From contig DASTNV010000289.1 of NCBI GenBank assembly GCA_035762725.1, positions 1 to 63,169 on the forward strand: a stretch of DNA of 63,169 nucleotides, read 5' to 3'. This document shows positions 1 to 63,169 of the stretch, one piece after another. The notes below the pieces were generated by a model. It made no database searches, was not told the DNA's origin, and was given only the letters and a program-made list of their open reading frames with translations. A program made the translations under genes and the position numbers. Source of the DNA: Lapillicoccus sp. GTDB lineage: Bacteria > Actinomycetota > Actinomycetes > Actinomycetales > Dermatophilaceae. The number at the start of each line of letters is the position of its first letter. Position 1 is the stretch's first letter.

Positions 1-1173
1 GGCGGCGCCGCCGTGCCGGCGCATCCGCCCGAGGATGCTTTCCCGCACCCCGAGCCGGTCGTCGCCGACGTCGCTCATCTCGAACCCGGGGCCGTGGTCG
101 CGAACGAACGCCTCCACGCCGGCAGGCCCGACCTCGACGTACGCCGACACCGGCGGCGACCCGTGGCGAACCGCGTTGAGCAGCGCCTCGCGGGTGGCCT
201 TGACCAGCGCCTGGCCGCCGTCGTCCATCGGCCGGTCGCCGGTGACGACGAGCTCGATCGGGGTGCCGTGCTCGTCCTCGACCTCATGAGTCACGGCGGT
301 CACGGCTGAGGCGAGGCTGTCCGAGGACCGGTTCTGGTCGGCGTAGAGCCACTCGCGCAGCTCGCGCTCCTGGGACCGCGCCAGCCGGATCACCGTGGCC
401 GGGTCGTCGGCCCGGCGCTGCACCAGCGCCAGGGTCTGCAGCACCGAGTCGTGCAGGTGGGCTGCAATGTCGGCGCGCTCGGTGGCCCGGATCCGCTCGG
501 TCTGCTCGGCCTGGAGCCCCTGCCACATCCGGACGACCCACGGCAGCGCAATGACCGTGGCGCCGACGAGAACCGCCACCGCCGCGAGGGCACTGGTCAG
601 CACCACGTCGAACCCCTGGCCCTGGGTCGCCAGGGCCACGACACCGACGGTCGCCAGGACTACGCCGATGACCGGCCGGGCGATGGCCAATGCACGCCCG
701 CGCTTCGACCGGCCGGCCCAGCGGGACCGCTCGTTCGTGTCGAGCTGCGACCAGGCGAGGAAGGCGCCGAAGGCCACCGCGATGACCGGCAGGAGGAACC
801 CCATCTGCCGCCCGAGCTGTCCGGCCGGACCGCCCCAACCGATCCCGATGACGAGCACCGCGGCGCCGATGACGAGCAGGACCTGGTTCTTGGTCAGCGC
901 CTTCTTCGGCCGCGCGACGGGAACTCCGTCCGGCGCCGAGGTGTCGGGTCGGGTCATCACCCAGAAGAAGCCGTAGACGAAGATCCCCGGCCCGGCGAGC
1001 GCCGCGAGGATCATCAGCAGCCGGACCAGACCGGAGCTGATGCCGAGGTGCTCGGCGATGCCGCCGCAAACCCCAGCGATCCAGCGGTCGCTCGACGACC
1101 GATAGAGCTTGGGACGCTCTACGGCCGGTGAGACGGCAGGCTGGGCCTCGGACACGCCTCCATACTCGCCCAT
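1..1173 (-). CDS. PspC-domain membrane sensor histidine kinase (partial, runs off left edge; alternative GTG start 1155)
   Basis: Not in the ORF track because it has no stop in the window. Manual translation: PKLYRSSSDRWIAGVCGGIAEHLG (PspC domain), TM segments, H-box IAAHLHDSVLQTLAL, HATPase EALLNAVRHG...VRDHGPGF. Confidence 0.88.
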   Translation of the reverse strand, partial: MGEYGGVSEAQPAVSPAVERPKLYRSSSDRWIAGVCGGIAEHLGISSGLVRLLMILAALAGPGIFVYGFFWVMTRPDTSAPDGVPVARPKKALTKNQVLLVIGAAVLVIGIGWGGPAGQLGRQMGFLLPVIAVAFGAFLAWSQLDTNERSRWAGRSKRGRALAIARPVIGVVLATVGVVALATQGQGFDVVLTSALAAVAVLVGATVIALPWVVRMWQGLQAEQTERIRATERADIAAHLHDSVLQTLALVQRRADDPATVIRLARSQERELREWLYADQNRSSDSLASAVTAVTHEVEDEHGTPIELVVTGDRPMDDGGQALVKATREALLNAVRHGSPPVSAYVEVGPAGVEAFVRDHGPGFEMSDVGDDRLGVRESILGRMRRHGGAA

Positions 1174-1196
1174 GCCAGCGGCCCTGGTAAGGCCGC

Positions 1197-1234
1197 TCGG
1201 GGTGGGTTCAGGGTGAGGTCAGGGTCGACCCTCA
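1197..1234. promoter_or_regulatory. Putative response-regulator operator array between divergent PspC genes
   Basis: TCRGGG at 1197, 1208 and 1219 (11-bp spacing), plus near-palindrome TCAGGG-TCGA-CCCTCA at 1219-1234. Confidence 0.55.
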
Positions 1235-1270
1235 TGGCTCGGGGGCGGCGCGCGCGGCCAGCATGGAGCC

Positions 1271-2512
1271 ATGGCCGAACCCAGCACGTCCAGCTCAGCC
1301 CGCTCCGGACTCGACGGGATGTTCTCGTCGCTGCGGGGCTTCGGCATCCGCCGCAACACGGACGACCGCTGGCTGGCCGGCGTCTGCTCCGGGATCGCCG
1401 ACCGCCTCGGCATCGACCCGTTGATCGTGCGTGGCGCCCTGATCGTGCTGCTCTTCGTCGGTGGGATCGGCGGCCTGGCCTACCTCATCGCCTGGGCGCT
1501 GCTGCCGGACCAGAATGGCCGGATCCTCGCCGAGGCCGCCCTCCACGGCGACGGCTGGGGGATCGCGCTCCTCGTCGTCATCGGTATCGCCCTGATCAGC
1601 AACATCTCCGACCGCTGGTGGCTGTGGACCATCCTCGTCCCGGTCGGCCTCCTGGTCTGGTGGGCCATCCACTCGGCCCGGCAGGGCAAGACGCCGGAGC
1701 AGATGAGCGAAGAGGCCCGCGAGTTCGGCAACAAGGTCGCCGCGACGTTCTCCCGGCCCCCCACGACCACGCCGACCGACTCATCCGCCACGTCGACCCC
1801 GGAGGCACCCACGGTGTCCACCACCGCCCCTCCGCACGCCATGGGTCCGGGCCGCACCGGCACCGTCGTCGCCCCCGAGCGGGTCGTCCACCGCGCTCGA
1901 CGGCGTGGGGGCTTCCTCGGCCTGCTACTCACCGCCGGCCTCGCCGTCACGGGGTACGGCCTCGGCACCTGGTATGCCGGCGAGAGCGGCTTCTCGGGGT
2001 CTCCTGAGGTTCTCGCCGCCGGGGTCGCCATCGTCGGTGCCGGCCTGGCCTTGCTCCTCATCGGCCTCGCCGGGCGCCGCGCGGGCTTCACCGTCTTCCT
2101 CGTAACGATCGCCGCGCTGGCCACCGTTGCGGGGACGTCGGTCCCCAACCTCCCTCAGGGTGGTGTGGGCGAACGTCAGTGGGTCGCCCTGTCGCAGCCG
2201 GCCGGCGGGTTCAGCCTCACCGCGGGCGAGGCGAAGCTCAACCTGGACGGGATGACGGGCGGAACCCCGGTCAACGTCTCGATGGGCTTCGGCCAGCTCA
2301 ACATCAGCGTGCCCAAGGACACCACCGCCACCATCGTCCCGAACGTCAAGGCCGGCCAGATCGTCGTGCACCGGCCGGGTGAGGACAAGGCCGTCCACAG
2401 CGGCGTCAACGCCGAGAACGCGCAGCCGATCACCGTCGGCAGCGGCCCCAACGCCGTCACCGTGAACGTCACGATGGTGGGCGGCGAGATCGTCGTCACC
2501 CAGGAGTCCTGA
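1271..2512 (+). CDS. PspC domain-containing membrane protein with C-terminal beta-rich (LiaF/DUF2154-like) region
   Basis: RRNTDDRWLAGVCSGIADRLGIDPLIVR PspC motif, several TM helices, C-terminal GEAKLNL..VSMGFGQLNISVP. Confidence 0.85.
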   Translation: MAEPSTSSSARSGLDGMFSSLRGFGIRRNTDDRWLAGVCSGIADRLGIDPLIVRGALIVLLFVGGIGGLAYLIAWALLPDQNGRILAEAALHGDGWGIALLVVIGIALISNISDRWWLWTILVPVGLLVWWAIHSARQGKTPEQMSEEAREFGNKVAATFSRPPTTTPTDSSATSTPEAPTVSTTAPPHAMGPGRTGTVVAPERVVHRARRRGGFLGLLLTAGLAVTGYGLGTWYAGESGFSGSPEVLAAGVAIVGAGLALLLIGLAGRRAGFTVFLVTIAALATVAGTSVPNLPQGGVGERQWVALSQPAGGFSLTAGEAKLNLDGMTGGTPVNVSMGFGQLNISVPKDTTATIVPNVKAGQIVVHRPGEDKAVHSGVNAENAQPITVGSGPNAVTVNVTMVGGEIVVTQES

Positions 2513-3006
2513 TGACCGACCCCACTGCCCCAACGCCCCAGGACGCCGACACCACCCAGGCCGTCCCCACCGAGGCGACCCAGCACCTTCCCGCCCAGGG
2601 AACCGGCTCCACGGCCTGGACCACGTGGGTCCCCGCGTCCGAGCAGCGTCCACCGAGCGCGCCGAGTACCTGGTCGCCCCCACCGGGCGGAAGTCCGTGG
2701 ACCCCGCCGCCGGCACCGCCGACCACTCCGGCACCGGTCGCCACACCGGCCCCGATGGCCCCACCGGCTCAGCCCACGCCGAAGCCTCATGTGACCTACC
2801 TGCCGCCGCCCTCCGGTCCTAACTGGGGCCTCGTCCTCATCGGCGTCGTCTTCGGGCTGGTCGGAGCGGGCGTCGTCGCGAACCAGCTGACGGGGTTCCA
2901 GATCTCGAGTGTCAGCGAGATGGGTCCGAGCGTCCTCGTCCTCGGCGGCCTCGCCTGCGCGCTGCTGGGGCTGGTCGGCATCCTCACCCGCCGTCGCCGG
3001 GGCTGA
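2512..3006 (+). CDS. Pro-rich membrane protein, third gene of the PspC locus
   Basis: TGATG overlap with the upstream gene; Pro/Thr-rich N-terminus and two C-terminal TM helices. Confidence 0.75.
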   Translation: MTDPTAPTPQDADTTQAVPTEATQHLPAQGTGSTAWTTWVPASEQRPPSAPSTWSPPPGGSPWTPPPAPPTTPAPVATPAPMAPPAQPTPKPHVTYLPPPSGPNWGLVLIGVVFGLVGAGVVANQLTGFQISSVSEMGPSVLVLGGLACALLGLVGILTRRRRG

Positions 3007-3688
3007 GGTCGGCCAGCAGCTCGCGCGTGCCCACCGCCAGCGGCAGCCCGTCCAGTTCCGCCGGCGCGAACCACGCCGAGGCCGCTGTCGTCCCGTTGAC
3101 GTCATGAACCACGGGTTCCGTGGGCGACGGACACGTCGCGAGATACACGAGTCGAACCGCGTGAAAGTCCTCCAGCCGACCGCTCGGCGCGCGCCCGACC
3201 CAGTGCCGCGTCGTCACCGCACCGATCCGGTCGACCTCCACGCGCTGGCCGGTCTCCTCCCACACCTCGCGGTGCAGGGCCGCTTCGGGCTGCTCGCCGG
3301 GGTCGAGCCCGCCGCCGGGGAAGCCCCAGGTACCGGCCGCATTGGTGAGCGCGGAGTTCTGGGCGAGCAGGACCCCTCGCGCGCTCCAGACGATCGCGTA
3401 CACCGCCACCCGCTGCAGGACCACCGGCTCCTCACCCGGCTCGAGCCGAAGGCCCTCATCCCGGGGCACCTCGCCGTCCTTCCGGAGCGTCCCGGATCCG
3501 GCCAGGACCTCGTAGAAGACCGAAACCGTATGCGGGTTCGCCTCTCCCACAACGAGACTCGGGCCTTGCGCCGCATACCCTTGGCGAGCCAGCAGGCGCA
3601 GCGGGTCGTCCCCGTGGGCCAGCCGCTCCCGGACCCGTTCGACACCGGAACCGTCGACGCCGACGACCCAGACCGCCGTACCGCTCAC
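2984..3688 (-). CDS. NUDIX hydrolase
   Basis: Nudix box GGGLDPGEQPEAALHREVWEETG; GTG start overlaps the GT4 stop (GTGA). Confidence 0.85.
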   Translation of the reverse strand: MSGTAVWVVGVDGSGVERVRERLAHGDDPLRLLARQGYAAQGPSLVVGEANPHTVSVFYEVLAGSGTLRKDGEVPRDEGLRLEPGEEPVVLQRVAVYAIVWSARGVLLAQNSALTNAAGTWGFPGGGLDPGEQPEAALHREVWEETGQRVEVDRIGAVTTRHWVGRAPSGRLEDFHAVRLVYLATCPSPTEPVVHDVNGTTAASAWFAPAELDGLPLAVGTRELLADLSPGDGG

Positions 3689-4812: not shown

Positions 4813-4848
4813 GGTTCCGAGGATGTCATGGGTCAGAATGGCGACCAC

Positions 4849-5667
4849 ATGGCACGGACACTGGTGGCGTTCCACGCCCACCCCGACGACGAGGCGCTGC
4901 TCACCTCCGGCACGATGGCGCGGGCCGCCGCCGAGGGTCACCGCGTCGTCCTCGTCGTCGCGACGGACGGCGGTCTCGGGCTCGCCGCGTCCGAGTTCGT
5001 CGGGCCCAGCGACACCAAGCTGGGCTCGGTCCGGATGGCCGAGCTCCAGGCCAGTGCCCACGCACTCGGCACCGCCCGCGTCGAGACCCTCGGGTATGCG
5101 GACAGCGGGCTCGGTCCTGAGACCCTGCCGGACCCGCCGGGCCGGGTCCGGTTCGTTCGAGCGGACCCCGAGGAGGCCGCGGAGCGGCTGGCCGCCATCC
5201 TTCGCGAGGAGCAGGCCGACGTGCTGCTGACCTACGACGCGAACGGCGGCTACGGCCACCGCGACCACGTCAAGGTCCACCACGTCGGAGCCCGCGCGGC
5301 CGAGCTGGCCGGCACCCCGCGCGTGCTGCAGGCCACCGTGCCGCGAGATCTCATCGTCCGCGCGATCCGGTTGGCCACCAAGGTGTACCGGTTCCCCCCG
5401 GAGTTCGACCCGACGTCGTTCGAGCGGGCCTACAGCCCGAAGGCCGCGGTCACCCACCGGATCGGGGTCCGCCGGTATGCGTCGCAGAAGCGGGCGTCGA
5501 TGCGCGCCCATGCGTCGCAGGCCTCGGCCGACGGCGGAGCCGACCGGACGCTGGCCGCCTTCCTGCGCATACCGCGTCCGCTGTTCGACCTCGTCTTCGG
5601 GCGGGAGTGGTACGTCGACGCCGCGCGGCCGGCCGGAGCGGGGGTGGCCCGTGGCATCTTCGACTGA
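4849..5667 (+). CDS. PIG-L/LmbE family N-acetylglucosaminyl deacetylase
   Basis: AFHAHPDDE, GGYGHRDH and KRASMRAHASQ motifs. Confidence 0.9.
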   Translation: MARTLVAFHAHPDDEALLTSGTMARAAAEGHRVVLVVATDGGLGLAASEFVGPSDTKLGSVRMAELQASAHALGTARVETLGYADSGLGPETLPDPPGRVRFVRADPEEAAERLAAILREEQADVLLTYDANGGYGHRDHVKVHHVGARAAELAGTPRVLQATVPRDLIVRAIRLATKVYRFPPEFDPTSFERAYSPKAAVTHRIGVRRYASQKRASMRAHASQASADGGADRTLAAFLRIPRPLFDLVFGREWYVDAARPAGAGVARGIFD

Positions 5668-6757: not shown

Positions 6758-7317
6758 CAGCCGAGGTCCTCCTGCCGGCCGAGCGCGTCGACGCGTAGCA
6801 GCTGGCCCTCGACGGGCACGACCATGAGGCCACTGCCGTCGAGCTGGTCGACCAGCTCGCGGGGAACCTCGTGGGCCTGCGCCGACACGAGGATCCGGTC
6901 GAACGGCGCCTCCTCGGGCAGGCCGAGCACGGGTCCGGCCCGGCGCACCGTCGCCCACGGCAGGCCGGCGGCCGCCACCGCACGACCACCGTCGTCGACG
7001 AGCTCCGCGATCCGTTCCACACCGACCACGCGCCCGGTCTCCCCGACCAGGCGGGCGAGCAGCACCGTCGTCCAGCCGGACCCGGAGCCCACGTCGAGGA
7101 CGCGCATACCGGGTCGAACCCGCAGCGCCCGCAGCATCGCCCGTACCGTGGTCGGCTGACTGTTGGTCTGCCCGTAGCCGATCGGCAGCGCACGGTCGAG
7201 GTCGGCGTACTGCTGCTGTCCCCGGGGCAGGTGGTTGGCGCGCGGGGTCGCCGCGATCGCCGCCTCGACGGCGTCGCGTTCCGTCTTCCCCGCAGGGGTG
7301 GCGTGACGCCAGCCCAT
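6709..7317 (-). CDS. pcm: Protein-L-isoaspartate O-methyltransferase
   Basis: LPIGYGQTNSQP, VLDVGSGSGW, APFDRILVSA. Confidence 0.88.
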   Translation of the reverse strand: MGWRHATPAGKTERDAVEAAIAATPRANHLPRGQQQYADLDRALPIGYGQTNSQPTTVRAMLRALRVRPGMRVLDVGSGSGWTTVLLARLVGETGRVVGVERIAELVDDGGRAVAAAGLPWATVRRAGPVLGLPEEAPFDRILVSAQAHEVPRELVDQLDGSGLMVVPVEGQLLRVDALGRQEDLGCYVFVPLVTGNETPWD

Positions 7318-7338
7318 CCAGTGAGTATGCCGCCGTCG

Positions 7339-8580
7339 TCAGCTTCGCGCAGCCCGCTCGCCGGCGACCACCCGGCCGGCCTGCACGACGTAGGCCAGGC
7401 GGCTCTCGGCCAGCACGGTGATATCGGCCACCGGATCCGTGTCGGTGATCACGAGGTCGCCGGCCGCACCCGGCGCCACCACGCCCAGCTCGCCCTCGCG
7501 CTGGAGCAGTGCCGCCGCCACCGTCGTCGCGCCGCGGATGACGTCGATCGTGGGGATGGTCCGCGCGCGGATCGCGAGCTCGCGGGCCTGGTACCGGTGC
7601 ATGCCGCCGAGCAGGTCGGTCCCGTATGCGGGGTTGACGCCGGCCGCGTGGGCCCGGCCGAGCGCGTCGTGGGCCTGGTCGAGAATCGCTGCGACCTTGG
7701 CCCAGCTGTCCTGCGAGAGGCCGTGGTCGCGGCCCTCCTCCTGGAGCGCCCAGTAGGTCACGAGGTTCATCGTGAGGAACGCTCCGTGCTCCTTGACGAC
7801 GGCCAGCGCCTCGTCGTCGACGAGGTTCGCGTGCTCGATGCCGCGAACGCCGGCCTGGACGGCGCGGGCGATCGCCCGACCGGTGTAGGCGTGCGCGGTC
7901 ACGTACCGGTAGGCCGCCTCGGCCTCCTCGACCACCGCCTCGATCTCGGCGACCGAGTACTGCGTCGAGTCGATCCGGTCGGTGGGTGACGCCACACCGC
8001 CGCTGGCCATGATCTTCACGTGGTGAGCGCCCTTGCGGAGCTCGTCCCGCGCGGCGATCCGGACCGCCGTGACGCCGTCGGCAATGCGGCTGATCCCCGG
8101 GCGGGTCGGGTGGTACTCGTCGGCGACCTGACCTCGCGACCGCGGATCGCCGTGACCCCCGGTCTGCGAAAGTGCCTTGCCACCGAAGAAGATTCGCGGA
8201 CCGCGGACCAGGCCCTCGCGCTGAGCGTCGTGGATCCCGTAGTCGGCGCCGCCCACGTCGCGGACCGTCGTGAACCCCCGCTCGAGCATGCCGTCGAGGA
8301 TGCGAGCCGTCCCGAACGCCACGTAGGTCGGCGAGAGCTCGGGGAGGTGGGCGAGGTCGGCCGTCACCGCAGTGACGTGGACGTGCGCGTCGATGAGGCC
8401 GGGCAGGACGTAACGACCGGTCGCGTCGAGGGTGTCGACGCCGGGGTTCGGCTCCAGCTGCGGGCCGACCTCGGTGATGAACCCGTCCCGGATCCGGACG
8501 TCGCCGGTGCGCCACTCGCCCGTAACGACATCGAGGAACTGACCGCCATGGACGAGGAGGTCGCCGGGGCTGGCCGTCAT
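7339..8580 (-). CDS. Metal-dependent amidohydrolase (Xaa-Pro dipeptidase-like)
   Basis: LPGLIDAHVH, GFTTVRDVGG, KIMASGGVASP, AHAY, IEHAN, YGTD. Confidence 0.88.
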   Translation of the reverse strand: MTASPGDLLVHGGQFLDVVTGEWRTGDVRIRDGFITEVGPQLEPNPGVDTLDATGRYVLPGLIDAHVHVTAVTADLAHLPELSPTYVAFGTARILDGMLERGFTTVRDVGGADYGIHDAQREGLVRGPRIFFGGKALSQTGGHGDPRSRGQVADEYHPTRPGISRIADGVTAVRIAARDELRKGAHHVKIMASGGVASPTDRIDSTQYSVAEIEAVVEEAEAAYRYVTAHAYTGRAIARAVQAGVRGIEHANLVDDEALAVVKEHGAFLTMNLVTYWALQEEGRDHGLSQDSWAKVAAILDQAHDALGRAHAAGVNPAYGTDLLGGMHRYQARELAIRARTIPTIDVIRGATTVAAALLQREGELGVVAPGAAGDLVITDTDPVADITVLAESRLAYVVQAGRVVAGERAARS

Positions 8581-24098: not shown

Positions 24099-25061
24099 AT
24101 GCGGGCCGCCCTACTCGAGAGCTACGGCTCGCCGCCGGTCGCCGGTGTGCGGGAGGCGCCGTCCGGTGCGGGCCCGCTCGTCTCGGTCACCGTGGCGCCG
24201 ATCGTCCCGCTCGACCTGTTCTGCGCGAGCGGTTCGTCGTACTTCGGCCGGCTCCCCCTCCCCTACGTCCCCGGCGTCCAGGGCGTCGGGATGCTGGCGG
24301 ACACCGGCACGCGGGTGTGGTTCGCCACCTCGGCCGGGATGGCTCCGGGCGACGGCAGCCTCGCCGAGCAGTGCACCGTGGCCGCCGACGACCTCGTGCC
24401 ACTGCCGGACCGCGTCGCCGACGAGGACGCCGCCGCCATCGGCCTCTCCGGCGTGGCCGCGTGGATGTGCCTGACCTGGCGTGCGCGGCTCCAGCCGGGC
24501 GAGCGGGTGCTCGTGCTCGGCGCGGGCGGGGTGGTCGGCCAGGCCGCGGTCGCCGGTGCCCGCCGGCTCGGGGCATCGAGCGTCGTCGCGGTATGCCGGT
24601 CGGCGGCGGCCGAGGCCCGCGCCCGCCGCGCCGGAGCCGACTCGGTCGTCGTGGTGGCCGAGCCGGAGACGACCGACGTGGCGGCGCTCAGCGAACGGTT
24701 CGTGGCCGCCGGCGGTGGACCCGTGGACGTGGTCGTCGACCCGGTCTTCGGGCCGTCGGCCAGCGCCGCCTGCCTGGCGCTGGCTCCGGGTGGCCGGCTG
24801 GTCAACCTCGGTGGCCTGAGCGGCGACGGCGCCCAGCTGTCGTCGGCGGTGCTCCGGTCCCGGTCGGCCAGTGTGCTCGGCTACACCAACAACGCGATCA
24901 CCCCGGCGCAGCGGGCCGAGGCGCTGGGCGAGGTCCTGCGGATGGCGGCCGACGGTGACCTCGTCGTCGACCACCGGACCCACCCGCTCGACGATGTCGC
25001 GACCGCGTGGGCGGCGGCGGCCCGGGGCGACGGCGTCCGCTCCCTCGTGCGTCTGCGCTGA
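24099..25061 (+). CDS. MDR-family (quinone oxidoreductase-like) oxidoreductase
   Basis: LPYVPGVQGVG, PGERVLVLGAGGVVG, DVVVDPVFG. Confidence 0.85.
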   Translation: MRAALLESYGSPPVAGVREAPSGAGPLVSVTVAPIVPLDLFCASGSSYFGRLPLPYVPGVQGVGMLADTGTRVWFATSAGMAPGDGSLAEQCTVAADDLVPLPDRVADEDAAAIGLSGVAAWMCLTWRARLQPGERVLVLGAGGVVGQAAVAGARRLGASSVVAVCRSAAAEARARRAGADSVVVVAEPETTDVAALSERFVAAGGGPVDVVVDPVFGPSASAACLALAPGGRLVNLGGLSGDGAQLSSAVLRSRSASVLGYTNNAITPAQRAEALGEVLRMAADGDLVVDHRTHPLDDVATAWAAAARGDGVRSLVRLR

Positions 25062-26863: not shown

Positions 26864-29356
26864 TCACTCCGATGTGGCGGCCAGTACCAGCTTCCGGACG
26901 TCGCTGGCGCTGGCCAGGGTCAGTGCCCGCTTGGCCAATGACGTGCACTGGTCCAGGTCGAGCTCACGGATGATCGCCTTCACTCTGGGCACGCTCGGGG
27001 GTGCGACGCTGAGCTCACGGACTCCCAGCCCGGCGAGGATCGGTATGGCCAGCTCGTCGGAGGCGGCCTCGCCGCAGACGCCGACGTCGATCCGGCCCTG
27101 CGCCGTTTGACAGACCTGGTCGATGAGCCGGAGCACCCCCGGGTCGAGGGCGTCGGACAGCGCAGCCACCGCGCTGTTCCCGCGCTCGGCCGCGAGCGCA
27201 TACTGCGTCAGGTCGTTCGTGCCGATGCTGACGAAGTCCACGTGAGGCAGGAACGCCTCGATCTTCAGGGCGGCCGACGGGACCTCGATCATCGTCCCCA
27301 GCCGCAGACCGGGCGGGAGTCCAGACGGTCCCGCCGCGTCGGTGAGCACGTGTCGAGCCTCGATCATCTCGTCGGGCGAGGACACCATCGGGATCATGAC
27401 GCTCGTGGGGTGCTGGCGCGCCGTGTGGCAGATGGCCACCATCTGGTCACGCAGCAGGTCGCGATGTTCGAGGCTGAGCCGGATGCCGCGCCTGCCGAGG
27501 AATGGGTTGGCCTCCTCCGGCATCCGCAGGTAGGGCAGTGGCTTGTCTCCACCGACGTCGAGGGTTCGCAAGATGATCGGCCGTCCGCACATCGCCGACG
27601 CGATGAGGTCGTACTCCGCCTGCTGCTCCTCGATGGTCGGTGGGACGCTCCGGTCCAGGAAGAGGAACTCGGTGCGGACCAGGCCGGCACCATCGGCCCC
27701 GGCCTGGTGGGCAGCGCGAGCGTCCGCGACGGATCCGAGGTTGGCCTCGACACGAAACGCCGTCCCGTCGCGCGAGACGGCAGGTCGGTCAGCGAGCGCC
27801 GCCTGCTCGGCGCGCAGCCGGATGTCCTCGAGGGCTCGACGTTCGTAGTTCTCGACCAAGTCGGTCGGCGGATCGACATACAGTTTTCCGATGCCCCCGT
27901 CGAGCACGACGGTGGTGCCCTCCGGGATGTCGAGGACCGCGGATCCCGCCGCGACGACAACGGGGATGTCGCGGGCGCGGGCCAGGATGGCGGCGTGCGA
28001 CGTCGCGCTGCCATGGGCGAGCACCACTCCGGTCACCAAGTCGAGGTCCAGACCGGCGGTCTCGACCGGGGTCAGGTCGTCGGCCACGAGGACCCCTGGG
28101 CCGGTCATCTCGCGGGCGACCTGCCCGGTCAGCGCCCGCAGTACGTGGTCTTTGACTGCCCCGACATCTGCAGCTCGCTCCCGTAAGTAAGGATCCGGGA
28201 GGTTGGCCCAGTCGCGTTCGACGTCGGCCAGGGAGTCAGCCCATGCCGCAACGGCGCCCGCGCCCCCTCCGATGCGGGCCTTCACGTCGGCCAGGAGCTC
28301 GGCATCGGTGAGGAGCGACAGGTGCGCATCGAAGATCCCGGCTTGCTCGGGGCCGACCTCTCGCAGCGTGAGGACTCTGACGCGGTCGATCTCCCGGCGC
28401 ACAGCCGCCACCGCCTCGGCGGAGCGCCGCCACTCGGCCGCCGGCACGTCCACCGTGTAGTCGGCGATGTCGACCGGGACCGCGCTGAGCCGACGAGCAG
28501 GTCCGATGGCGATGCCCGGGGACGCCGGCACCGGACCGGTCCGGCTGGGTGTCGACGGACCGGAAGCCGGCCGCGTCCGGACCTGCTCGACCTGTTCGTC
28601 GAATCGGCGCTTCGCGAGGCTCACGAGGTGCTCCACGGCTTCCTGCGCCTGCGGCCCGGACGCGCGGACCTCGACGTCGTGCCCGAAAAGCGCTGACAGC
28701 AAGGCGACCCGGCTCAGGCTTCCTGCGGGGACCGGCCCCGCCCCCGTCGTGAGGTTGCGCAGGTGCACGGTCGCATCGAGGCCGCGCACCTCGCTGACCA
28801 GCCGGGCGGCCGGCCTCGCGTGCAGTCCGTGGCGGTTGTCGACGCGAAACACCCCGACGACCTCATCGCGGCCGGCCTCGACCACGTCCGACGCCTCGCT
28901 GTGATCGCCCGCCGAGAGGTGGGCTGCCTTGCCCAACAACGCTGCTCGCGCTTCAGCGGCGACCTCCTCCCGGTTGGCTCCTCCTGCGGCGGCTACCGCG
29001 GCGACGACAAGGCCTTCGACGAGGGGCGCGGGAGACAGGGTCACCCGGTCGCGGATGGCCGGATCCGGGAGGAGGTCGAGAGCGAGTTCGGCGCTGAGCA
29101 ACGCGCTGCCGAGATCCATGAGAACCACGACACCCTTCGGCCGGTCCGCCCGCACAATCGCTTCCATGATGCTGACGGCATCGGTTCCAAAGGTGCTGTC
29201 GTCAAGTCCCGCAGCCACCTCGATGGTGACCGCGCGGCCGTGGAGCATCTCTCCCGCCAGCGCGACGGAAGCGCCCGCGAGTGCACGACTGTGGGAGACC
29301 ACGACGAGGCCGACCCGATCCTTGGCGTCGGCCGAAGGGCTCTGTGTCACGTCCAC
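26864..29356 (-). CDS. dhaM: DhaM(EIIA)-HPr-Enzyme I fusion phosphotransferase
   Basis: GLVVVSHS..GTDA (DhaM), GLHARPAA (HPr), TSHAAILAR, GLVRTEFLF, RTLDVGGDK, SIGTNDLTQY (EI). Confidence 0.9.
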   Translation of the reverse strand: MDVTQSPSADAKDRVGLVVVSHSRALAGASVALAGEMLHGRAVTIEVAAGLDDSTFGTDAVSIMEAIVRADRPKGVVVLMDLGSALLSAELALDLLPDPAIRDRVTLSPAPLVEGLVVAAVAAAGGANREEVAAEARAALLGKAAHLSAGDHSEASDVVEAGRDEVVGVFRVDNRHGLHARPAARLVSEVRGLDATVHLRNLTTGAGPVPAGSLSRVALLSALFGHDVEVRASGPQAQEAVEHLVSLAKRRFDEQVEQVRTRPASGPSTPSRTGPVPASPGIAIGPARRLSAVPVDIADYTVDVPAAEWRRSAEAVAAVRREIDRVRVLTLREVGPEQAGIFDAHLSLLTDAELLADVKARIGGGAGAVAAWADSLADVERDWANLPDPYLRERAADVGAVKDHVLRALTGQVAREMTGPGVLVADDLTPVETAGLDLDLVTGVVLAHGSATSHAAILARARDIPVVVAAGSAVLDIPEGTTVVLDGGIGKLYVDPPTDLVENYERRALEDIRLRAEQAALADRPAVSRDGTAFRVEANLGSVADARAAHQAGADGAGLVRTEFLFLDRSVPPTIEEQQAEYDLIASAMCGRPIILRTLDVGGDKPLPYLRMPEEANPFLGRRGIRLSLEHRDLLRDQMVAICHTARQHPTSVMIPMVSSPDEMIEARHVLTDAAGPSGLPPGLRLGTMIEVPSAALKIEAFLPHVDFVSIGTNDLTQYALAAERGNSAVAALSDALDPGVLRLIDQVCQTAQGRIDVGVCGEAASDELAIPILAGLGVRELSVAPPSVPRVKAIIRELDLDQCTSLAKRALTLASASDVRKLVLAATSE

Positions 29357-29371
29357 CTCGCTCGCCTTTCG

Positions 29372-30037
29372 TCAGGATTGGTCTGGCACCGCAGCCGTGG
29401 ATGTCGCCGCATCCGCCGCGGCCTGGATGAACAGGGCGACGCTCGCCGCGCCCGGGTCCATGTGACCGATACTGCGTTCGCCGAGGTAGCTCGCCCGGCC
29501 CTTACGGGCCAGCATCGGAGTCGTGGCATCGCGACCGGCGCGAGCAGCCTGACTGGCGGCGGTGAGTCCGGTCGCCAGCGAAGCGTCCTCGGCGAGGGAA
29601 CGCTCGAGCGCATCCACCGCGGGCGCCAGCGCGTCGTACATGGTCTTGTCCCCCGGTGCCGGCTTGCCGCGATCCACGACACCGCCGAGGCCTGCTCGCA
29701 GAGCGGCAGCGACGTCGCCGGCGGCCAGGGTCTCGCCAGCGGTTCCGAGCGAGCCGCCCATCCGCAGGAACATCGTGCCGAACAGTGGCCCGCTGGCTCC
29801 CCCGACGGTGGAGACCAACGTCATCCCCACCTTGGAAAGGAGTGCCCCGGCGTTAGGGGGCGGGTTTTCGTCGAGCGCGGCCACGGCGGCCTTCATGCCC
29901 CGATCCATGTTCGAGCCGTGATCGGCATCGCCGATCGCCGCGTCGAGCTCGGTCAGGTGCTCGCGGTTGTCCGCGATCAGCTGGGCGAAGTCGCGCACCC
30001 AGCGCTCGAAGACCGCCGTGGTCACGCTCTGGCTCAT
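29372..30037 (-). CDS. dhaL: Dihydroxyacetone kinase subunit L
   Basis: LTELDAAIGDADHG, VGGASGPLFG, GDKTMYD, KGRASYLGERSIGHMDPG. Confidence 0.95.
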   Translation of the reverse strand: MSQSVTTAVFERWVRDFAQLIADNREHLTELDAAIGDADHGSNMDRGMKAAVAALDENPPPNAGALLSKVGMTLVSTVGGASGPLFGTMFLRMGGSLGTAGETLAAGDVAAALRAGLGGVVDRGKPAPGDKTMYDALAPAVDALERSLAEDASLATGLTAASQAARAGRDATTPMLARKGRASYLGERSIGHMDPGAASVALFIQAAADAATSTAAVPDQS

Positions 30038-30039
30038 GG

Positions 30040-31041
30040 TCAGATTCCCCATCTCAGGGCCGGTGTATTGACCGGAGCGTCCCAGAGCGAGAGCAGCTCG
30101 TCATCCACCCGGAGCAGGGTGACGGACACGCCGGCCATGTCGAGCGAGGTGATGTAGGAGCCGACGAGCGATCTGGCCACCGGCACGCCGTGCTGGTCGA
30201 GGATCCTCTGTACCTCGTTGAACATGAGGTAGAGCTCGATGAGCGGCGTGCCACCGAGGCCGTTGACGAAGGCGATCACCGGATCGCCCTTGGCGAATGG
30301 CAGGTCGGAGAGGACAGGCTCGACAAGCAGCGCGGCGATCTCGCGCGCGGGTGCCAGTGGACGTCGCTCTCGACCGGGCTCACCGTGGATCCCGACGCCG
30401 AGCTCCATCTCGTCGTCCCCGAGCTCGAAGGTCGGATGACCGACCGCGGGCACGGTGCACGAGGTGAGCGCTAAGCCCATGCTGCGTCCGTTCACGTTCA
30501 CGGCGCGGGCGATCCTCGCGACCTCGTCGAGGTCGCGACCCTGCTCGGCGGCGGCTCCGGCGATCTTCTCGAGGAGGACCGTCACACCGACGCCGCGGCG
30601 CCCCGCCGTCCACGTGCTGTCCTGGACGGCCACGTCGTCGTCGGTGACGACCGAGACGACGCGAGCCCCGGTTTCGGCGGCCGCCATCTCGGCGGCCATC
30701 TCGAAGTTCATGACGTCGCCGGTGTAGTTCTTCACGACGTGCAGGATGCCGGCGCCGCCGTCCACCAGCTTCGTTGCGGCGAGGATCTGGTCCGGCACCG
30801 GCGACGTGAAGACGTCACCCGCACAGGCCGCATCCAGCATCCCCTGCCCGACGAACCCGCCGTGCAGCGGCTCGTGCCCCGAACCGCCCCCCGAGATGAT
30901 CCCCACCTTGCCGGTCGTCGGCGCGGCACCTCGGTAGATGACCTTGTTCTCGTAGTCGACCCGCAGGTCGGGATGAGCCGCCTCGACGCCGCGAAGGGCT
31001 TCAAGCACGACGTCGTTCGGGTCGTTGATGAGCTTTTTCAT
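30040..31041 (-). CDS. dhaK: Dihydroxyacetone kinase subunit K
   Basis: [37 protein letters not shown]. Confidence 0.96.
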
Positions 31042-31087
31042 GAGAGTCCCTTTCGGTGCGACTGGTCAGCGGTCCTGATGCGGAGGG

Positions 31088-31879
31088 TCAGACGGCGGTG
31101 GCGGGCTGCGCGTCCGCCGTCTGCAGCTCGGGATCACCGAGGTCCAGGCCTGGGGCGGCCACGGAGGACTCAGCTGGGGTGCGCGTCAGGACGCCGTAGA
31201 GCAGGGCCGCGAGAACACCCGCCAGGAGCTCGGCGACGAGGTAGACCGGAAGCTGCGACCACTTCACCTGGCCGCCCGCGATCTGCTGGACGAGCATGGG
31301 TCCCACGGTACGAGCGGGGTTGATCGAGGCGCCCGTGGTCGGCGCCACGGGGATGATGGCCGCGAAGACGACCAGGCCGATCGCCACGCCGGCGAATCCG
31401 GCCGCCGCCTTGCGGTGGATCACGCCGAAGATCGTGAAGACGAGAATGAAGGTGCCCACGAACTCGGCGGTGAACGCCTGTACCCAGCTGATGTCGCCGT
31501 ACGACGCGACGCCCAGGCCGACATCGCTCGCCTTCTGACCGAGGACGCCGATTATCGCGGCAGCTCCGATAATCGCGCCGACGACCTGCGCGCCGATGTA
31601 TGCCGGCACCTGCGACCAAGGGAACTTGCCCGACACGGCAAGACCCAGCGTCACGGCCGGATTGATGTGGTTGCCACCCACATGGCCGAGGGCGTACACG
31701 GTGGCGATGACCACCGTGCCGAACGCCAGCGAGATCACGCCAAGGTCGGCCATGGTGAAGGGCGCGTTGCCGTTGACGATCAGGGTGGCGGGGACGGAGC
31801 CCACCCCGATGAACACGAGGAACGCGGTCCCGATCACCTCGGCACCCAGGCGTTGGAGGAAGTTGGTCTCGTCAAGCAT
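31088..31879 (-). CDS. MIP family channel (glycerol/DHA facilitator-like)
   Basis: Two NPA motifs (HINPAVT, SINPART). Confidence 0.92.
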   Translation of the reverse strand: MLDETNFLQRLGAEVIGTAFLVFIGVGSVPATLIVNGNAPFTMADLGVISLAFGTVVIATVYALGHVGGNHINPAVTLGLAVSGKFPWSQVPAYIGAQVVGAIIGAAAIIGVLGQKASDVGLGVASYGDISWVQAFTAEFVGTFILVFTIFGVIHRKAAAGFAGVAIGLVVFAAIIPVAPTTGASINPARTVGPMLVQQIAGGQVKWSQLPVYLVAELLAGVLAALLYGVLTRTPAESSVAAPGLDLGDPELQTADAQPATAV

Positions 31880-31914
31880 GGGCCTTGCTCCTTCGCAAGT
31901 AGGCTCCGAATTTG

Positions 31915-31931
31915 ATTCGACAATGTCGAAT
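31915..31931. promoter_or_regulatory. Palindromic operator for the divergent IclR (GylR-like) regulator
   Basis: ATTCGACA-A-TGTCGAAT, perfect arms, in an AT-rich divergent intergenic region. Confidence 0.7.
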
Positions 31932-32003
31932 GTGTTTTGGAGGCTACACCTGTGATTCACTGGTGAGCAAGGGTTTTCGATAACCACGTCGGAGGGACAG
32001 GAC

Positions 32004-32777
32004 GTGATCCAGTCGGTCGACCGGGCGATCCGCGTACTCAGCGCACTCCAGGGCGCGCGGAGGATGAGCCTCTCGGAGTTGGCCGCCCGCCTCGACCTCG
32101 CTCCGTCGACGACCCACGGCATCGTCCGGACTCTCGTCGAGCACGGCATGGTCGTGCAGGAGCGCGGATCGAGCCGCTACCAGCTCGGACCGGCGGTACT
32201 CCGGCTGGGAAACGTCTACCTCGACACCCTGGAGCTGCGATCGAGGGCCATCCCCTGGGCCGAGGATCTCGCCCGACGCACGGGTCTCGCCGTGCGCACC
32301 GGCGTGCTGCTCGTGGACGACGTCGTGATCATCCACCACGAGCCGCGGCCCGACGGCAGCCGGCAGATGCCCGAAGTCGGCATCGTGATCCCGGTCCACG
32401 CCAGCGCGCTCGGCAAGGCCATGCTCGCGTTCCTTCCTGAGGACGAGAAGCGCGTGCTGACCTCAGGCGACCTGCGCAGCATGACCGGGGAGACCATCGG
32501 CTCGCCGGACGTGCTCCGCGAGCAGCTCGACGAGATCCGGTCCAGCGGCATCGCGGTGGAGCAGGACGAGGCCGTGATCGGGGAGAGCTCCCTCGCGAGC
32601 CCGATCTTCGACTCCTACGCGGAAGCCGTCGGCGCCATCGGCGTGGTGATCCCGTCCGACGGCGACATCGCACGCCACGACGCCCGGGACCTGGTCCGTG
32701 AAGCGGCGCGGTCCGTGTCACGAGAGCTGGGCGCCGCGGCGTGGCCTCCACGGGGGATCTCGGACCGACAACCCTGA
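32004..32777 (+). CDS. IclR family regulator, GylR-like
   Basis: IQSVDRAIRVL, STTHGIVRTL, VIIHHEPRPDGSRQ, HASALGKA. Confidence 0.9.
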   Translation: MIQSVDRAIRVLSALQGARRMSLSELAARLDLAPSTTHGIVRTLVEHGMVVQERGSSRYQLGPAVLRLGNVYLDTLELRSRAIPWAEDLARRTGLAVRTGVLLVDDVVIIHHEPRPDGSRQMPEVGIVIPVHASALGKAMLAFLPEDEKRVLTSGDLRSMTGETIGSPDVLREQLDEIRSSGIAVEQDEAVIGESSLASPIFDSYAEAVGAIGVVIPSDGDIARHDARDLVREAARSVSRELGAAAWPPRGISDRQP

Positions 32778-45662: not shown

Positions 45663-45968
45663 ATGGCGGAGATTTCGAGGCTGCCTGGCCCGGTGGCGGA
45701 TCTGTGGGACTGGCAGCTCCAGGGGCTGTGCCGGCGCGAGAACCCGGACGTGTTCTTCCACCCCGAGGGCGAGCGCGGCCCGGCCCGGCGCAACCGGGAC
45801 TCCCGGGCCAAGGAGGTCTGCCAGACCTGTCCGGTCCTCACCCAGTGCCGCGCCCACGCCCTTCAGGTCCGCGAGCCCTACGGCGTCTGGGGCGGGATGA
45901 CCGAGGACGAGCGAGAAGCGGTGTATGCCACGTATGCGACCACCGGTTCCCCGGTCCCGGCCGCCTGA
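45663..45968 (+). CDS. whiB3: WhiB family Fe-S regulator (WhiB3/WhiD)
   Basis: WDWQLQGLC, FFHPEGERG, CxxC, EPYGVWGG; GAGGAGGAG RBS. Confidence 0.93.
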   Translation: MAEISRLPGPVADLWDWQLQGLCRRENPDVFFHPEGERGPARRNRDSRAKEVCQTCPVLTQCRAHALQVREPYGVWGGMTEDEREAVYATYATTGSPVPAA

Positions 45969-46132
45969 CCCACTTCCCGAACCTGACCCACTTCCCGAAC
46001 CTGACCCGCATACCGGCGCCTGACCCGCATACCGGCGCCTGACCCGCATACCGGCACCCGACCCGCATACCGGCACCGGAGCCGCATACCGGCTCCCGAC
46101 CTGCATACCGGCACCGGAGCCGCGTACCGGCT
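45964..46132 (+). repeat. Tandem array: 2 x 18-bp plus 7 x 19-bp units (core GCATACCGGC)
   Basis: CCTGACCCACTTCCCGAA x2, then CCTGACCCGCATACCGGCG-type units starting at 46000, 46019, 46038, 46057, 46076, 46095 and 46114. Confidence 0.9.
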
Positions 46133-46331: not shown

Positions 46332-48323
<1,992 letters not shown>

Positions 48324-56630: not shown

Positions 56631-56639
56631 CCCGGCAGG

Positions 56640-59472: not shown

Positions 59473-59577
59473 GGGCGTCAGTGTGGCAGGCGAGGCTCCT
59501 GAGCCCCCCGCGTCTCCGGTTCGTGCTCTGAGTCGCACCGAAATCCGTACTCGCGCCGCACGAATCAGCGGGAGGCG

Positions 59578-61035
59578 TCACGCATACCGGAGAAGCGCGG
59601 CGACGGTCTCGGGTATGCGTCGGGCCACCTCGCTGATCCGGACCGGACCTCCGGGGTTGGCCCGGTCTGCGGCCACCCCGTGGACGAGGGCGCCGAGCGC
59701 CCCGGCGTCAAGCGGGTCGAGTCCCGCGGCGAGGAGGGTGCCCAGCAGGCCGCCGAGGACGTCGCCGGCGCCGGCGGTGGCCAGCCACGCGGGAGCGTCG
59801 GCCTGGCTGCGGACCGCCCGGTTCGCGTCGGGAGAGACGACGAGGGTATGCGCGCCCTTGAGCAGGACAGTGCACCTGGTCCGCTCGGCCGCCTCGCGGG
59901 CATGGGCGAGGGGTGCGGCACTGACCTGCTCACGGTTGACCTCCTCGCCGCGGAGCCGGGTCAGCAGCCGGGCCAGCTCACCCGCGTGAGGGGTGAGCAG
60001 CGTCGGCGCGTCGCGACGTCCGACCAGCTCCAGCGCGCCCGCGTCGACAACGGCCGGCAGGTCGGACGCCAGGGCCTCTTCCACATGGTGCTTCTGCTCG
60101 GCCACTCCCTTGGCGCGGCTCGACGGGTCGAACCCCGACCCGCACACCCACGCCTGGACCCGGCCCTCGGCGGTGACCGCCTCCGGCGCCGCCGCGTGGA
60201 CGAGCGCCTGGACCTCGGGCGGCCCGTAGTACCGGACCATGCCTGGCCCGGCACCAAGCGCCCCGAGCACGCTGAGGACGGCGGCCCCGGGATACGTGGG
60301 CGTCCCCGCGACGATGCCGACCACGCCGCGGGAGTACTTGTCCGAGCTCGCGCCCGGAACGGGCCAGAGCGCGGCGACGTCGTCGAAGGTGAGCCGCTCC
60401 ACCACCGACTTCCCCGATTCCACGGCCAGGCCGATGTCGACGACGGTCAGCCGGCCGACCGCGGGCTCGGTGGCCGGGAGCAGGTGAACCGGCTTGGGGA
60501 CGCCGAAGGTGACCGTCTCGTCCGCAAAGACGGCGTCGCTGACCGGCACCTCGCCGGCCGGGTCGGCGCCACTCGGCAGGTCGACGGCCACAACCCAGGC
60601 GTCCTCGGGAACCCCGTCGGCCCAGGCGACCGCATCGCCGCTGAGCCCGGGTCGCCCGCCGATCCCGAGGATCCCGTCGACGACGACGTCGGCCTCGGCC
60701 AACACCGAACCCCACGCGTCGCCGTCGCCCGGGACCAGGGCCACTCCCGCGACACGGGCCGCCTCGAGGCCGCCGCCATGAGCAGACGCCGCGTGCACCG
60801 CCGCCGCGGCGAACCCCTGCTCGGCAAGGTGGGCCAACGCATACAGGGCGTCCCCGCCGTTGTTGCCGGCCCCGACCAGGCCGACGACACGCATACCGCC
60901 GCGTTCCTCGAGCCGCGCGGCGACGACGGCAGCGAGTCCCCGAGCGGCCCGGCTCATCAGCTCGCCGTCGGGCAGGGCCGACATCGCCGCCTCCTCGGCG
61001 GCGCGGACGTCGGCGACGGAGTAGGCCTCGATCAC
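59578..61035 (-). CDS. nnr: Bifunctional NAD(P)HX epimerase/dehydratase
   Basis: GAGNNGGD, DLPSG, DKYSRG, LTPHAGE, LATAGAGDVL. Confidence 0.93.
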   Translation of the reverse strand: MIEAYSVADVRAAEEAAMSALPDGELMSRAARGLAAVVAARLEERGGMRVVGLVGAGNNGGDALYALAHLAEQGFAAAAVHAASAHGGGLEAARVAGVALVPGDGDAWGSVLAEADVVVDGILGIGGRPGLSGDAVAWADGVPEDAWVVAVDLPSGADPAGEVPVSDAVFADETVTFGVPKPVHLLPATEPAVGRLTVVDIGLAVESGKSVVERLTFDDVAALWPVPGASSDKYSRGVVGIVAGTPTYPGAAVLSVLGALGAGPGMVRYYGPPEVQALVHAAAPEAVTAEGRVQAWVCGSGFDPSSRAKGVAEQKHHVEEALASDLPAVVDAGALELVGRRDAPTLLTPHAGELARLLTRLRGEEVNREQVSAAPLAHAREAAERTRCTVLLKGAHTLVVSPDANRAVRSQADAPAWLATAGAGDVLGGLLGTLLAAGLDPLDAGALGALVHGVAADRANPGGPVRISEVARRIPETVAALLRYA

Positions 61036-61039
61036 GAGG

Positions 61040-61390
61040 TCAACCCTCCGCCACCACGACCGCCGACGCGATCCCGGCGTCGTGCGACATGGACAGGTGG
61101 AACGCGGCGACCCCGAGATCGTCGGCGCGCGACTCGACGCTGCCGGTCACCCGCAGCGACGGGCGGCCGTTGCCGTCCTGGACCACGGTCGCGTCGAGCC
61201 AGCTCAGCCCGGCCGGCGCGCCGAGCGACTTGGCCAGCGCCTCCTTGGCGGCGAACCGGGCGGCCAGCGAGGCCAGTCCGAGGTGTCGCTCGGTCGGGGT
61301 GAAGAGGCGCTCCCGGAGGGCCGGGCTGCGGTCGAGGGTCTGTCCGAACCGCTCGATGTCGACGACGTCGATCCCGACCCCGATGATCAC
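61040..61390 (-). CDS. acpS: Holo-ACP synthase
   Basis: [24 protein letters not shown]. Confidence 0.95.
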
Positions 61391-63168
61391 TCGACCGTGA
61401 CCGACTTGGCGAGGTTGCGCGGCTGGTCGACGTCGAGGCCCTTCGCCGAGGCCAGCTCGCAGGCGAACACCTGGAGCGGGACGACGGTGAGCAGCGGCGC
61501 CAGCAGCGTGGACACCGCCGGGACGCGGATCACCTCGTCGGCGAAGGGCACCACGTCCTCGTCACCCTCCTCGGCCACGACGATCGTCCGGGCGCCGCGG
61601 GCGCGGATCTCCTGGATGTTCGACACGAGCTTCGCGTGCAGGCCGTGAGCGGTCGACGGCGCCGGCACGACGACGAACACCGGCTGCCCGGGTTCGATGA
61701 GGGCGATCGGGCCGTGCTTGAGCTCGCCCGCGGCGAACCCTTCCGCGTGGATGTAGGCGAGCTCCTTGAGCTTCAGCGCTCCCTCCAGCGCGACGGGGAA
61801 CCCGACGTGCCGGCCGAGGAACAGCACCGCCCGCGAGTCGGCCATGAACCGGGCGAACTCGCGGACCCGGCCCATCGAGTCGAGGACGGTCTGGATCTTG
61901 TCCGGCACGCCCTGCAGCTCCGACATCACCGCGGCCGCCTGGGCCGCCGACGACTCGTCGCCCCGCAGCTGCGCCAGGTACAGACCCAGGATGTAGACGG
62001 CAGTGATCTGGGCGAGGAACGCCTTGGTCGACGCGACGGCGATCTCCGGACCGGCGTGCGTGTAGAGCACCGCGTCGGACTCGCGAGGGATCGTCGCGCC
62101 GTGGGTGTTGCAGATCGAGATGGTCAGCGCACCCAGCTCGCGGGCGTGCTTCACCGCCATGAGCGTGTCCATCGTCTCGCCGGACTGGCTGATCGAGACG
62201 ACCAGCGTGCGGCCGTCGATGACCGGGTCGCGGTAGCGGAACTCGTGCGCCAGCTCGACCTCGCAGGGTATGCGGGTCCAGTGCTCGATCGCGTACTTGG
62301 CGATCATCCCGGCGTAGGCCGCCGTGCCGCAGGCGATGACGACGATCTTGTCGACGTTGCGGAGGGCGGTCTCGGAGATGCGGAGCTCGTCGAGCACCAG
62401 GCGTCCCGATTGGTCGGTGCGGCCCAGCAGGGTGTCCGCGACGGCCTGCGGCTGCTCCTGGATCTCCTTGCTCATGAAGTTCGGGTAGCCGCCCTTCTCG
62501 GCGGCGGCGGCGTCCCAGTCGACGTGGTAGGGCCGGCCCTCGACCGGACTGCCGTCGAACCCGATCACCGCGACCGAGGACGGTGTGATCGTGGCGATCT
62601 GGTCCTGCCCGAGCTCGAGGGCGTCGCGGGTGTGCCCGATGAACGCCGCGACGTCGGAGCCGAGGAAGTTCTCGCCGTCGCCGAGCCCGACGACGAGCGG
62701 GCTGTTGCGCCGCGCCCCCACGACGACCCCCGGGGCATCGGCGTGGATCGCCAGCAGCGTGAACGCGCCCTCGAGGTCGCCGACGACAAGCCGCATCGCC
62801 TCGGTGAGGTCGCGGGTCTCGTCGAAGGCCCTCGCCACTAGATGGGCGGCCACCTCGGTGTCGGTCTCGGACGTGAACTGGACGCCGTCGTCGACGAGCT
62901 TGGCCTTGAGGCTGTGGAAGTTCTCGATGATCCCGTTGTGGATCAGGGCCAGCTTGCCGTCGCTGCCGCCGCGGTGCGGGTGGGCGTTGTGGTCGGTCGG
63001 CCCCCCGTGGGTGGCCCAGCGGGTATGCCCGATGCCGGTGCTCGACGGCGGCAGCGGGTGGGCGGCGATCGCCTCCCGCAGGTTGCCCAGCTTGCCGGAC
63101 CGCTTCTCCGTGGCGACGTGGTCGCCGTCGACGAGCGCGACGCCGGCCGAGTCGTAGCCGCGGTACTC
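61387..63168 (-). CDS. glmS: Glutamine-fructose-6-phosphate aminotransferase (partial; N-terminus beyond right edge)
   Basis: [37 protein letters not shown]. Confidence 0.97.
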
Positions 63169-63169
63169 G

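Follow-up and report, generated by a model that had tools for sequence, protein, structure and literature searches.

The hexamer GCATAC, read on the opposite strand as GTATGC, is strongly over-represented in a 63,169-nt stretch of DNA (the window) and throughout the genome from which it comes, a Lapillicoccus-clade member of the Dermatophilaceae, a family of soil actinobacteria (G000; 3.31 Mb, 70.9% GC, 74% complete). The signal is real and clade-wide, and about one copy per 2 kb is kept on each strand independently, a spacing rule which makes its function testable. We read the word as a directional signal that is probably recognised separately on each strand with a reach of 1-2 kb, and put the probability of this reading at roughly 0.8.

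The window (72.0% GC) contains 35 copies of GCATAC and 34 of GTATGC. These are exactly the approximate counts of the original prediction, a first reading of the window, and all ten site coordinates quoted there are exact. The mononucleotide expectation, which had been estimated at about 16, is 16.2, and a first-order Markov model expects 7.6 copies, which corresponds to a 9.1-fold excess. The codon-preferred words GTACGC and GCGTAC are outnumbered as proposed, with 27 copies together versus 69. Within the called genes of the window 53 sites are found, compared to a mean of 12.6 and a maximum of 23 in 1,000 synonymous shuffles. The sites and the features which matter for their interpretation are the following.

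1972 to 63028, 35 on the plus and 34 on the minus strand: the 69 dispersed copies of the hexamer, 53 of them within called genes in all six frame and strand settings and 16 non-coding or in uncalled genes.
24591 to 24596, minus strand: an example site within the gene 24099-25061, where it encodes Val-Cys as GTA TGC.
62268 to 62273, minus strand: an example site encoding Arg-Ile-Pro with the rare ATA codon, in glmS.
45923 to 45937, minus strand: two sites 9 nt apart in the last part of a whiB-family gene (45693-45968), each encoding Tyr-Ala.
45981 to 46131, plus strand: a 19-bp tandem array of 8 copies with 85% matches, holding six GCATAC of the same orientation, between whiB and the groEL end.
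46332 to 48205, minus strand: groES-groEL with zero sites, highly expressed genes being depleted.
26864 to 32777, no strand assigned: the dha island with 2 sites in 5.9 kb, missing from the syntenic region of the congener G012.

The two peptide contexts, the absence of sites from groES-groEL and from either guaB, and the two sites of the dha island all agree with the first reading of the sequence. Six of the 35 GCATAC copies belong to the 19-bp array, which is a local repeat atypical of the signal and leaves the enrichment result unaffected. In the region 45964-46131 two tandem arrays directly adjoin each other (18 bp x 2.4 and 19 bp x 8), and no similarly tight cluster of sites is present in the matching segments of G012 or G011. 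A further element of about 50 bp (~59516-59565) lies between an alr-like gene and the next gene; it recurs widely in G000, has copies of 80-94% identity in congeners and is probably a REP-like repeat.

Genome-wide, G000 carries 3,604 sites (1.09/kb), and GCATAC is its top hexamer under the first-order Markov model (8.6-fold). All 55 contigs longer than 15 kb have densities between 0.62 and 1.54/kb. The word is sharply defined: 51% of all ATA trinucleotides of the genome fall inside it, the nine one-base variants which retain ATA occur only 27-251 times each, and the palindromes GCATGC and GTATAC stay below the shuffle expectation. The 3,070 genes called with the genome's own dicodon model contain 3,036 sites, compared with 577 after synonymous shuffling within genes and 683 after a context-preserving shuffle. 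This 4.4- to 5.3-fold excess is seen in all six frames and survives both kinds of shuffle, the comparison on which the original prediction had staked its claim that the signal overrides codon preference. The cost in codons is considerable, the word supplying 1,272 of the 2,097 TAT and 126 of the 256 ATA codons. Where a silent change of one transition could create the word and C or G stands at -1, it is present in 63-75% of the cases, versus 1-22% in contexts that are one base off. Even the protein sequence is affected: Gly-Met-Arg, Gly-Met-Pro and Gly-Ile-Pro occur at 1.7-2.3 times the expectation in enriched genomes and at 0.6-1.1 times, on small counts, in the low-density genome G015. Outside genes the density reaches 1.63/kb. 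The word is depleted in the genes with the highest GC content at third codon positions and in a heuristically picked set of 21 ribosomal-protein-like genes. Differing versions of rplK (contigs C245 and C262) and of rplJ-rplL (C176 and C245), with few sites, are present in G000; these duplicates possibly represent the 3% contamination of the assembly.

The distribution of the word within the family is bimodal. Genomes with at least 0.3 sites/kb were classed as enriched and those with less than 0.15 as low; 180 of 301 family genomes are enriched, 106 are low and 15 are intermediate. Such lineage counts are tallies and not tests, since related genomes are not independent. The median density is at least 0.3/kb in 39 of 71 genera, with a highest value of 1.75/kb, and 21 of 24 congeners reach that threshold (this tally takes in the unpublished G007 and G017, which no other result uses). 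Among named loci the density is 0.77/kb in Knoellia, 0.60/kb in Pedococcus and 0.07/kb in Streptomyces. Outside the family no enrichment is seen in 16 genomes of other families of the same order, where the density equals that of a control word. In a class-wide set of 248 actinomycete genomes, including the unpublished G353 and G360, none reaches 0.3/kb (top value 0.25/kb, the table being read by eye). The signal thus is lineage-specific, as had been supposed, and neither outcome named beforehand as refuting it, no excess after shuffling or an equal frequency in unrelated high-GC actinobacteria, was observed. A mild excess of SGCATAC, at most 0.25/kb and about 1.8 times the control word, is found in G390 and its family f52, another actinomycete family. 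Inside the genus the low density of G015, with just 78 sites in 4.6 Mb, is a loss, because this genome is nested in the genus beside two genomes of reduced density. On a single-gene tree G256 and G079 look like additional losses, and the g18/g70/g76 group is also counted among the nested ones.

The spacing of the sites carries the directional reading. Overall the coefficient of variation of the spacing in G000 is 0.863 compared to 0.945 +/- 0.012 by chance, and none of 300 occupancy permutations is as even. This evenness comes from pairs of the same orientation. Within 1 kb such pairs occur at 0.52-0.67 of expectation in G000 and at 0.40-0.75 in four relatives, and the deficit is gone by 1.5-2 kb. 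Pairs of opposite orientation are found at 0.9-1.3 of expectation in G000, and three control hexamers have no same-orientation deficit. The deficit (0.51-0.64) is present within genes, across co-directed as well as oppositely directed genes, and with intergenic sites. Neighbouring sites share their orientation in only 1,175 of 3,272 cases in G000 (35.9%), in 37.2% in the four relatives and in 157 of 408 cases in other genera; control words give 45-52%. A silent opportunity is filled in 38% of the cases when it would split a same-orientation gap shorter than 1 kb and in 74% when the gap is 4-6 kb. The resulting spacing per strand has a mean of 2.0-2.3 kb and a median of 1.7-1.9 kb.

Polarity was judged on syntenic segments of 250-400 kb and on contigs. 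No replichore polarity was detected in three 400-kb segments, with counts by strand of 190/175, 184/184 and 178/195, and in the syntenic segments neither counts, occupancy nor the skew lobes described below display a leading/lagging bias. The balance of the two strands noted at the outset thus extends to equal counts and equal occupancy in replichore segments. A preferred distance between inverted pairs was not found.

The base composition around the sites changes in an oriented way too. At fourfold-degenerate positions G minus C on the GCATAC strand is about -0.04 just 5' and +0.03 just 3' of the word and decays over 1-2 kb. With block-clustered errors the lobes amount to +0.066 (z 10) on the 3' side and -0.037 (z -6) on the 5' side. 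The 3' lobe is governed by the nearest upstream site of the same orientation; a second such site adds nothing, and an intervening site of opposite orientation leaves the lobe unmasked. An oriented model outperforms an orientation-blind one, and the skew forms a sawtooth between same-orientation sites. The step persists under gene fixed effects and gene-position terms, and control hexamers give far smaller steps (at most about 0.03, one poorly sampled case excepted). How the step is split between the 5' and 3' sides is unstable across models, and the idea that the skew is confined to the 3' side was dropped, since gene fixed effects shift the split while the step remains. A and T are lower and G is higher 3' of the sites, and both A and T climb with distance. 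Polarised substitution rates, for which numbers are too few, have no significant distance effect (G>A observed/expected 0.90-1.06).

Weak flank preferences extend over about 35 bp, and non-coding and silent positions agree in them. Purines are favoured at -16 to -8, A at -4 and -2, C at -1 and +6, and T at +9 to +19. An apparent rule against A at -1 was considered as reader specificity; it is better explained by a genome-wide avoidance of TAnnnT, the shape of a -10 box (T in 4.4% versus 11-15% after other dinucleotides). T at +8 shows a similar depletion.

To follow how the word is kept, silent changes along four terminal branches were polarised by parsimony in 225 alignments of orthologues. 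Word-creating changes are raised for transitions (5 of 87 versus a background of 1.6%) and for transversions (6 of 164 versus 0.48%). Word-destroying changes are lowered in two classes (10 of 173 versus 14.9%, and 1 of 144 versus 8.0%), and losses by C<->G exchange are cut about tenfold. The occupancy implies 3.3-4.3 log-odds units relative to assumed backgrounds of 4-6%. Small as these counts are, they resemble what selection or conversion drive would produce and not what a hotspot would. The transition neighbours GCGTAC, GCATGC and GCACAC are found at 0.45-0.81 of the shuffle expectation and three transversion neighbours at 0.85-1.1. A drain of the transition neighbours as the mechanism was set aside, being confounded by an avoidance of GTAC. 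At non-Ala fourfold positions G before TAC has an odds ratio of 0.18-0.45 in word-rich genomes, compared to 0.48 for loci of low family members, 0.68 for G015 and 1.74 for Streptomyces. GTAC may act as a decoy for the reader or be targeted by restriction.

Within the directional class we lean, tentatively and at less than even odds, towards an unpolarised Chi-like recombination signal. It is favoured because redundancy confined to one orientation follows from Chi logic, which could also produce conversion drive with no additional components. The weak flank preferences and the lack of enrichment in the phage TJE1 are in line with it. An enzyme travelling along the DNA would read the word one way; end resection would stop there and strand invasion would begin. 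Such a one-way machine would need just the first site facing it, a nearby second site of the same facing would add little, and a site on the other strand would serve the opposite direction of travel. If a break or an incoming fragment has two ends, each orientation would be required as much as the other, and replichore polarity would not arise. Site-bearing alleles would win by gene conversion or selection, by some 3-4 log-odds units. AdnAB would be the default candidate reader, although no evidence ties it to the word, and we know of no Chi sequence for this enzyme. In the accessible part of one AdnAB paper (PMC13000450) the term Chi occurs only in the references.

Several observations weigh against the Chi-like reading. 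Consecutive GCATAC sites alternate strands, whereas Chi is normally polarised, and within one replichore segment the two strands have equal occupancy (0.572 and 0.576). The base preferred on the 3' side is A or G in Escherichia coli Chi and T in GCATAC. With a longer left-hand gap the 3' G excess does not increase (z -3.5), and with a longer right-hand gap it levels off, which counts against Chi because simple Chi models predict growth with the gap. All 30 genomes searched have AdnA, those of low density among them, and no residue of AdnA or of the N-terminal part of AdnB tracks the trait; RecC, in 54 of 180 enriched and 41 of 106 low genomes, does not track it either and was rejected as reader. 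The density appears to differ little between core and accessory DNA (0.86-1.1 versus 0.79/kb in G012). Finally, two classes of word loss are not significantly reduced (1 of 196, p 0.38; 4 of 70, p 0.31).

Further reader candidates were examined family by family, as guesses rather than by a full proteome profile, and none of the families tested tracks the word. A stand-alone RecB/Cas4-like nuclease fitted in five of five genomes and was dropped when the family-wide count gave 132 of 180 enriched and 56 of 106 low genomes. This protein, with four cysteines, is encoded in G000 on the minus strand of contig C266 (~7005-8020; L232:1297-2310) upstream of a ParA-family gene. It is nearly exclusive with RecC: among 301 genomes 189 have the nuclease only, 91 RecC only, 8 both and 13 neither. 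It may substitute for a RecBCD function and is unrelated to the GCATAC trait. Methyltransferase and Vsr searches covered five genomes each. They gave no match to C5 methyltransferase, Dam or Vsr families, and no conserved N6/N4, type I, Eco57I or MmeI-type orthologue; with PF00145, PF01555, PF02384, PF07669, PF02086 and PF20473 no conserved match was obtained, though unusual families might escape. A weak N6/N4 match in G000 and G011 is a 332-aa protein by truB with sub-threshold methyltransferase matches, not found in the enriched G016, and the Eco57I and MmeI matches are unrelated proteins of differing size. G015 and G256, the only two losses examined, encode a ~670-aa N6/N4 methyltransferase, in size like a type III Mod protein, together with a type I M gene. 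G000 and G011 have neither; the enriched G024 does possess a type I M gene. A search for AP2 domains gave no match, its control being silent as well. By eye, no obvious DNA-acting gene was lost in a syntenic scan of 400 kb of G015, less than one tenth of that genome.

Mobile elements were considered as well. Record searches yielded neither plasmids nor phages for the family. In five prophage loci, 20.4 kb in all, 11 sites are present, their hosts having 0.67-1.37/kb, and an SPP1-type portal gene was seen in only 4 of 55 enriched family genomes.

A bolder reading, to which we likewise give less than an even chance, is that the word may represent a new class of signal. A non-palindromic word would punctuate each strand every ~2 kb regardless of the direction of replication and start a strand-specific tract of synthesis or repair, which would leave the sawtooth at silent sites. 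Its reader would be unrelated to RecBCD/AddAB/AdnAB, DnaG, methyltransferases and pilins.

Priming is unlikely, if still worth weighing. Here the GTATGC strand would be the template, a primer would be laid at the site, and synthesis would run 3' along the GCATAC strand to the next site of the same facing. The mean spacing per strand lies within the range of Okazaki fragments, and the reset of the sawtooth by the nearest upstream same-orientation site would fit. However, the lack of any leading/lagging bias in counts, occupancy and skew lobes speaks against it, as does the rise of both A and T with distance, which leaves no clean signature of single-strand deamination. DnaG occurs on both sides of the trait, and no DnaG column separates enriched from low genomes in 27 aligned genomes (four missing, G015 compared by eye only), and AEP primases, on both sides of the trait, were rejected as reader. 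The phage TJE1, for which no polymerase is annotated, shows no enrichment (5 sites versus 9.5 expected).

Somewhat less probable is a mark of the parental strand or a loading site for long-patch repair. Because an asymmetric mark labels one strand, evenly spaced copies would be required on either strand separately; this is the most direct account of the equal and independent use of both strands, and the lower A and T and higher G 3' of the sites agree with it. It suffers from the absence of a conserved methyltransferase among the six families searched on five genomes each, and from substitution rates in which no significant change with distance is seen. NucS was rejected as reader, being present in all five genomes tested, losers among them; according to the part of PMC11551767 available, NucS repair is short-patch.

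The doubts are greater again for a DNA-uptake or single-strand entry sequence. Such a site would determine the position and the strand at which incoming DNA enters and recombines, and would spread by molecular drive. The density is like that of uptake sequences, and the extended weak flank and the distortion of peptides point in the same direction. In the accessible portions of two papers the spacing of the DNA-uptake sequence (DUS) matches the length of conversion tracts (PMC2397512) and the highly iterated palindrome HIP1 is linked to transformation (PMC13756078). ComEC is present in 61 of 62 genomes regardless of the word; its presence speaks for uptake, but it does not discriminate and was rejected as reader. 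PilM was rejected too: it occurs in 2 of 80 genomes, both of reduced density (Tad pili were not searched for). These two carriers of a type IV pilus PilM, G005 and G014, are congeners with partly eroded density. A core of just 6 bp and the lack of preferred inverted pairs also count against uptake, and double-stranded uptake should be indifferent to orientation.

That selection keeps the word as a static binding site of a nucleoid or architectural protein is very improbable. It would agree with the selection-like gains and losses, the extended footprint and the higher density outside genes, but leaves the exclusion of same-orientation sites only and the signed skew step unexplained, and the AP2 search, with its silent control, gave no match. 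The weakest explanation, a functionless product of context-dependent mutation by 5-methylcytosine deamination of GTACGC or GCATGC, is rejected and largely refuted already: transition neighbours are scarce and transversion neighbours near expectation, but the GCGTAC shortage belongs to the general GTAC avoidance, three different cytosines on two strands would have to act as hotspots solely where this word results, gains by transversion are elevated no less than those by transition and C<->G losses reduced, no C5 methyltransferase was found in the five genomes searched, and occupancy responds to neighbours 1 kb off. Of the candidates first named for the word, the non-palindromic, lineage-specific signal stands and the uptake or recombination signal remains a candidate, closest to the Chi-like reading we favour; the methyltransferase origin finds no support, and a plain nucleoid site does not account for an exclusion confined to same-orientation copies.

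No earlier description of the word in bacteria was found in the literature searched, subscription journals and methylome databases lying outside the search, and the papers containing GCATAC or GTATGC are unrelated, as judged by title and start of the abstract. KOPS-type motifs are strongly polarised along replichores, unlike GCATAC in the three 400-kb segments. Primase sites and the GATC marks of Dam/MutH are, like GCATAC, strand-specific and act over 1-2 kb; no lagging-strand bias, DnaG change or methyltransferase was found for GCATAC. DUS and uptake signal sequences (USS) have a core of 9-12 bp and close inverted pairs at terminators. GCATAC differs from them in its 6-bp core, in having no inverted terminator pairs, in the rarity of PilM (2 of 80) and in its orientation-specific redundancy. 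As far as the accessible text of PMC2397512 goes, it shares with them about one copy per kb, positions inside proteins, a spacing on the scale of recombination tracts and loss in some lineages. With HIP1 and the alternate HIPs it shares 1,000-2,000 copies per Mb, clade-wide occurrence, the overriding of codon choice and an unsettled function, to go by the accessible parts of PMC4390886 and PMC13756078. In contrast to HIP1, GCATAC is not palindromic, has an AT-rich core in a 71% GC genome and no cognate methyltransferase was found. Chi and Chi-like sequences of RecBCD/AddAB likewise are short, non-palindromic and over-represented, are read in one orientation and have effects of the flanking context, 3' in the case of E. 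coli Chi according to the available part of PMC5041463. The part of PMC8022716 that was accessible describes Chi as normally polarised, with consecutive sites on one strand and one site per 5 kb in E. coli, and reports non-polarised Chi candidates in Vibrio. GCATAC is unpolarised, alternates strands, is about five times denser than E. coli Chi and no tie to AdnAB/RecBCD was found. It fails a defining test of each known word. Against Chi the failing point is polarity, against DUS the length of the core and the pilus, and against HIP1 palindromy and the methyltransferase.

Highly iterated words of genomes, among them Chi, DUS and HIP1, are each the mark of a fundamental DNA transaction, and no such word was found described for Actinobacteria in the literature searched. 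Should GCATAC be Chi-like, end resection in actinobacteria would gain a sequence that regulates it. Should it mark priming or the repair strand instead, a phylum which, to our knowledge, lacks MutS and MutL would have a new means of telling strands apart. Cultured Knoellia and Pedococcus carry the word and close relatives have lost it, so that the reader should be findable by comparative profiling and pull-down. Being non-palindromic, the word reveals a per-strand spacing rule that palindromes such as HIP1 conceal.

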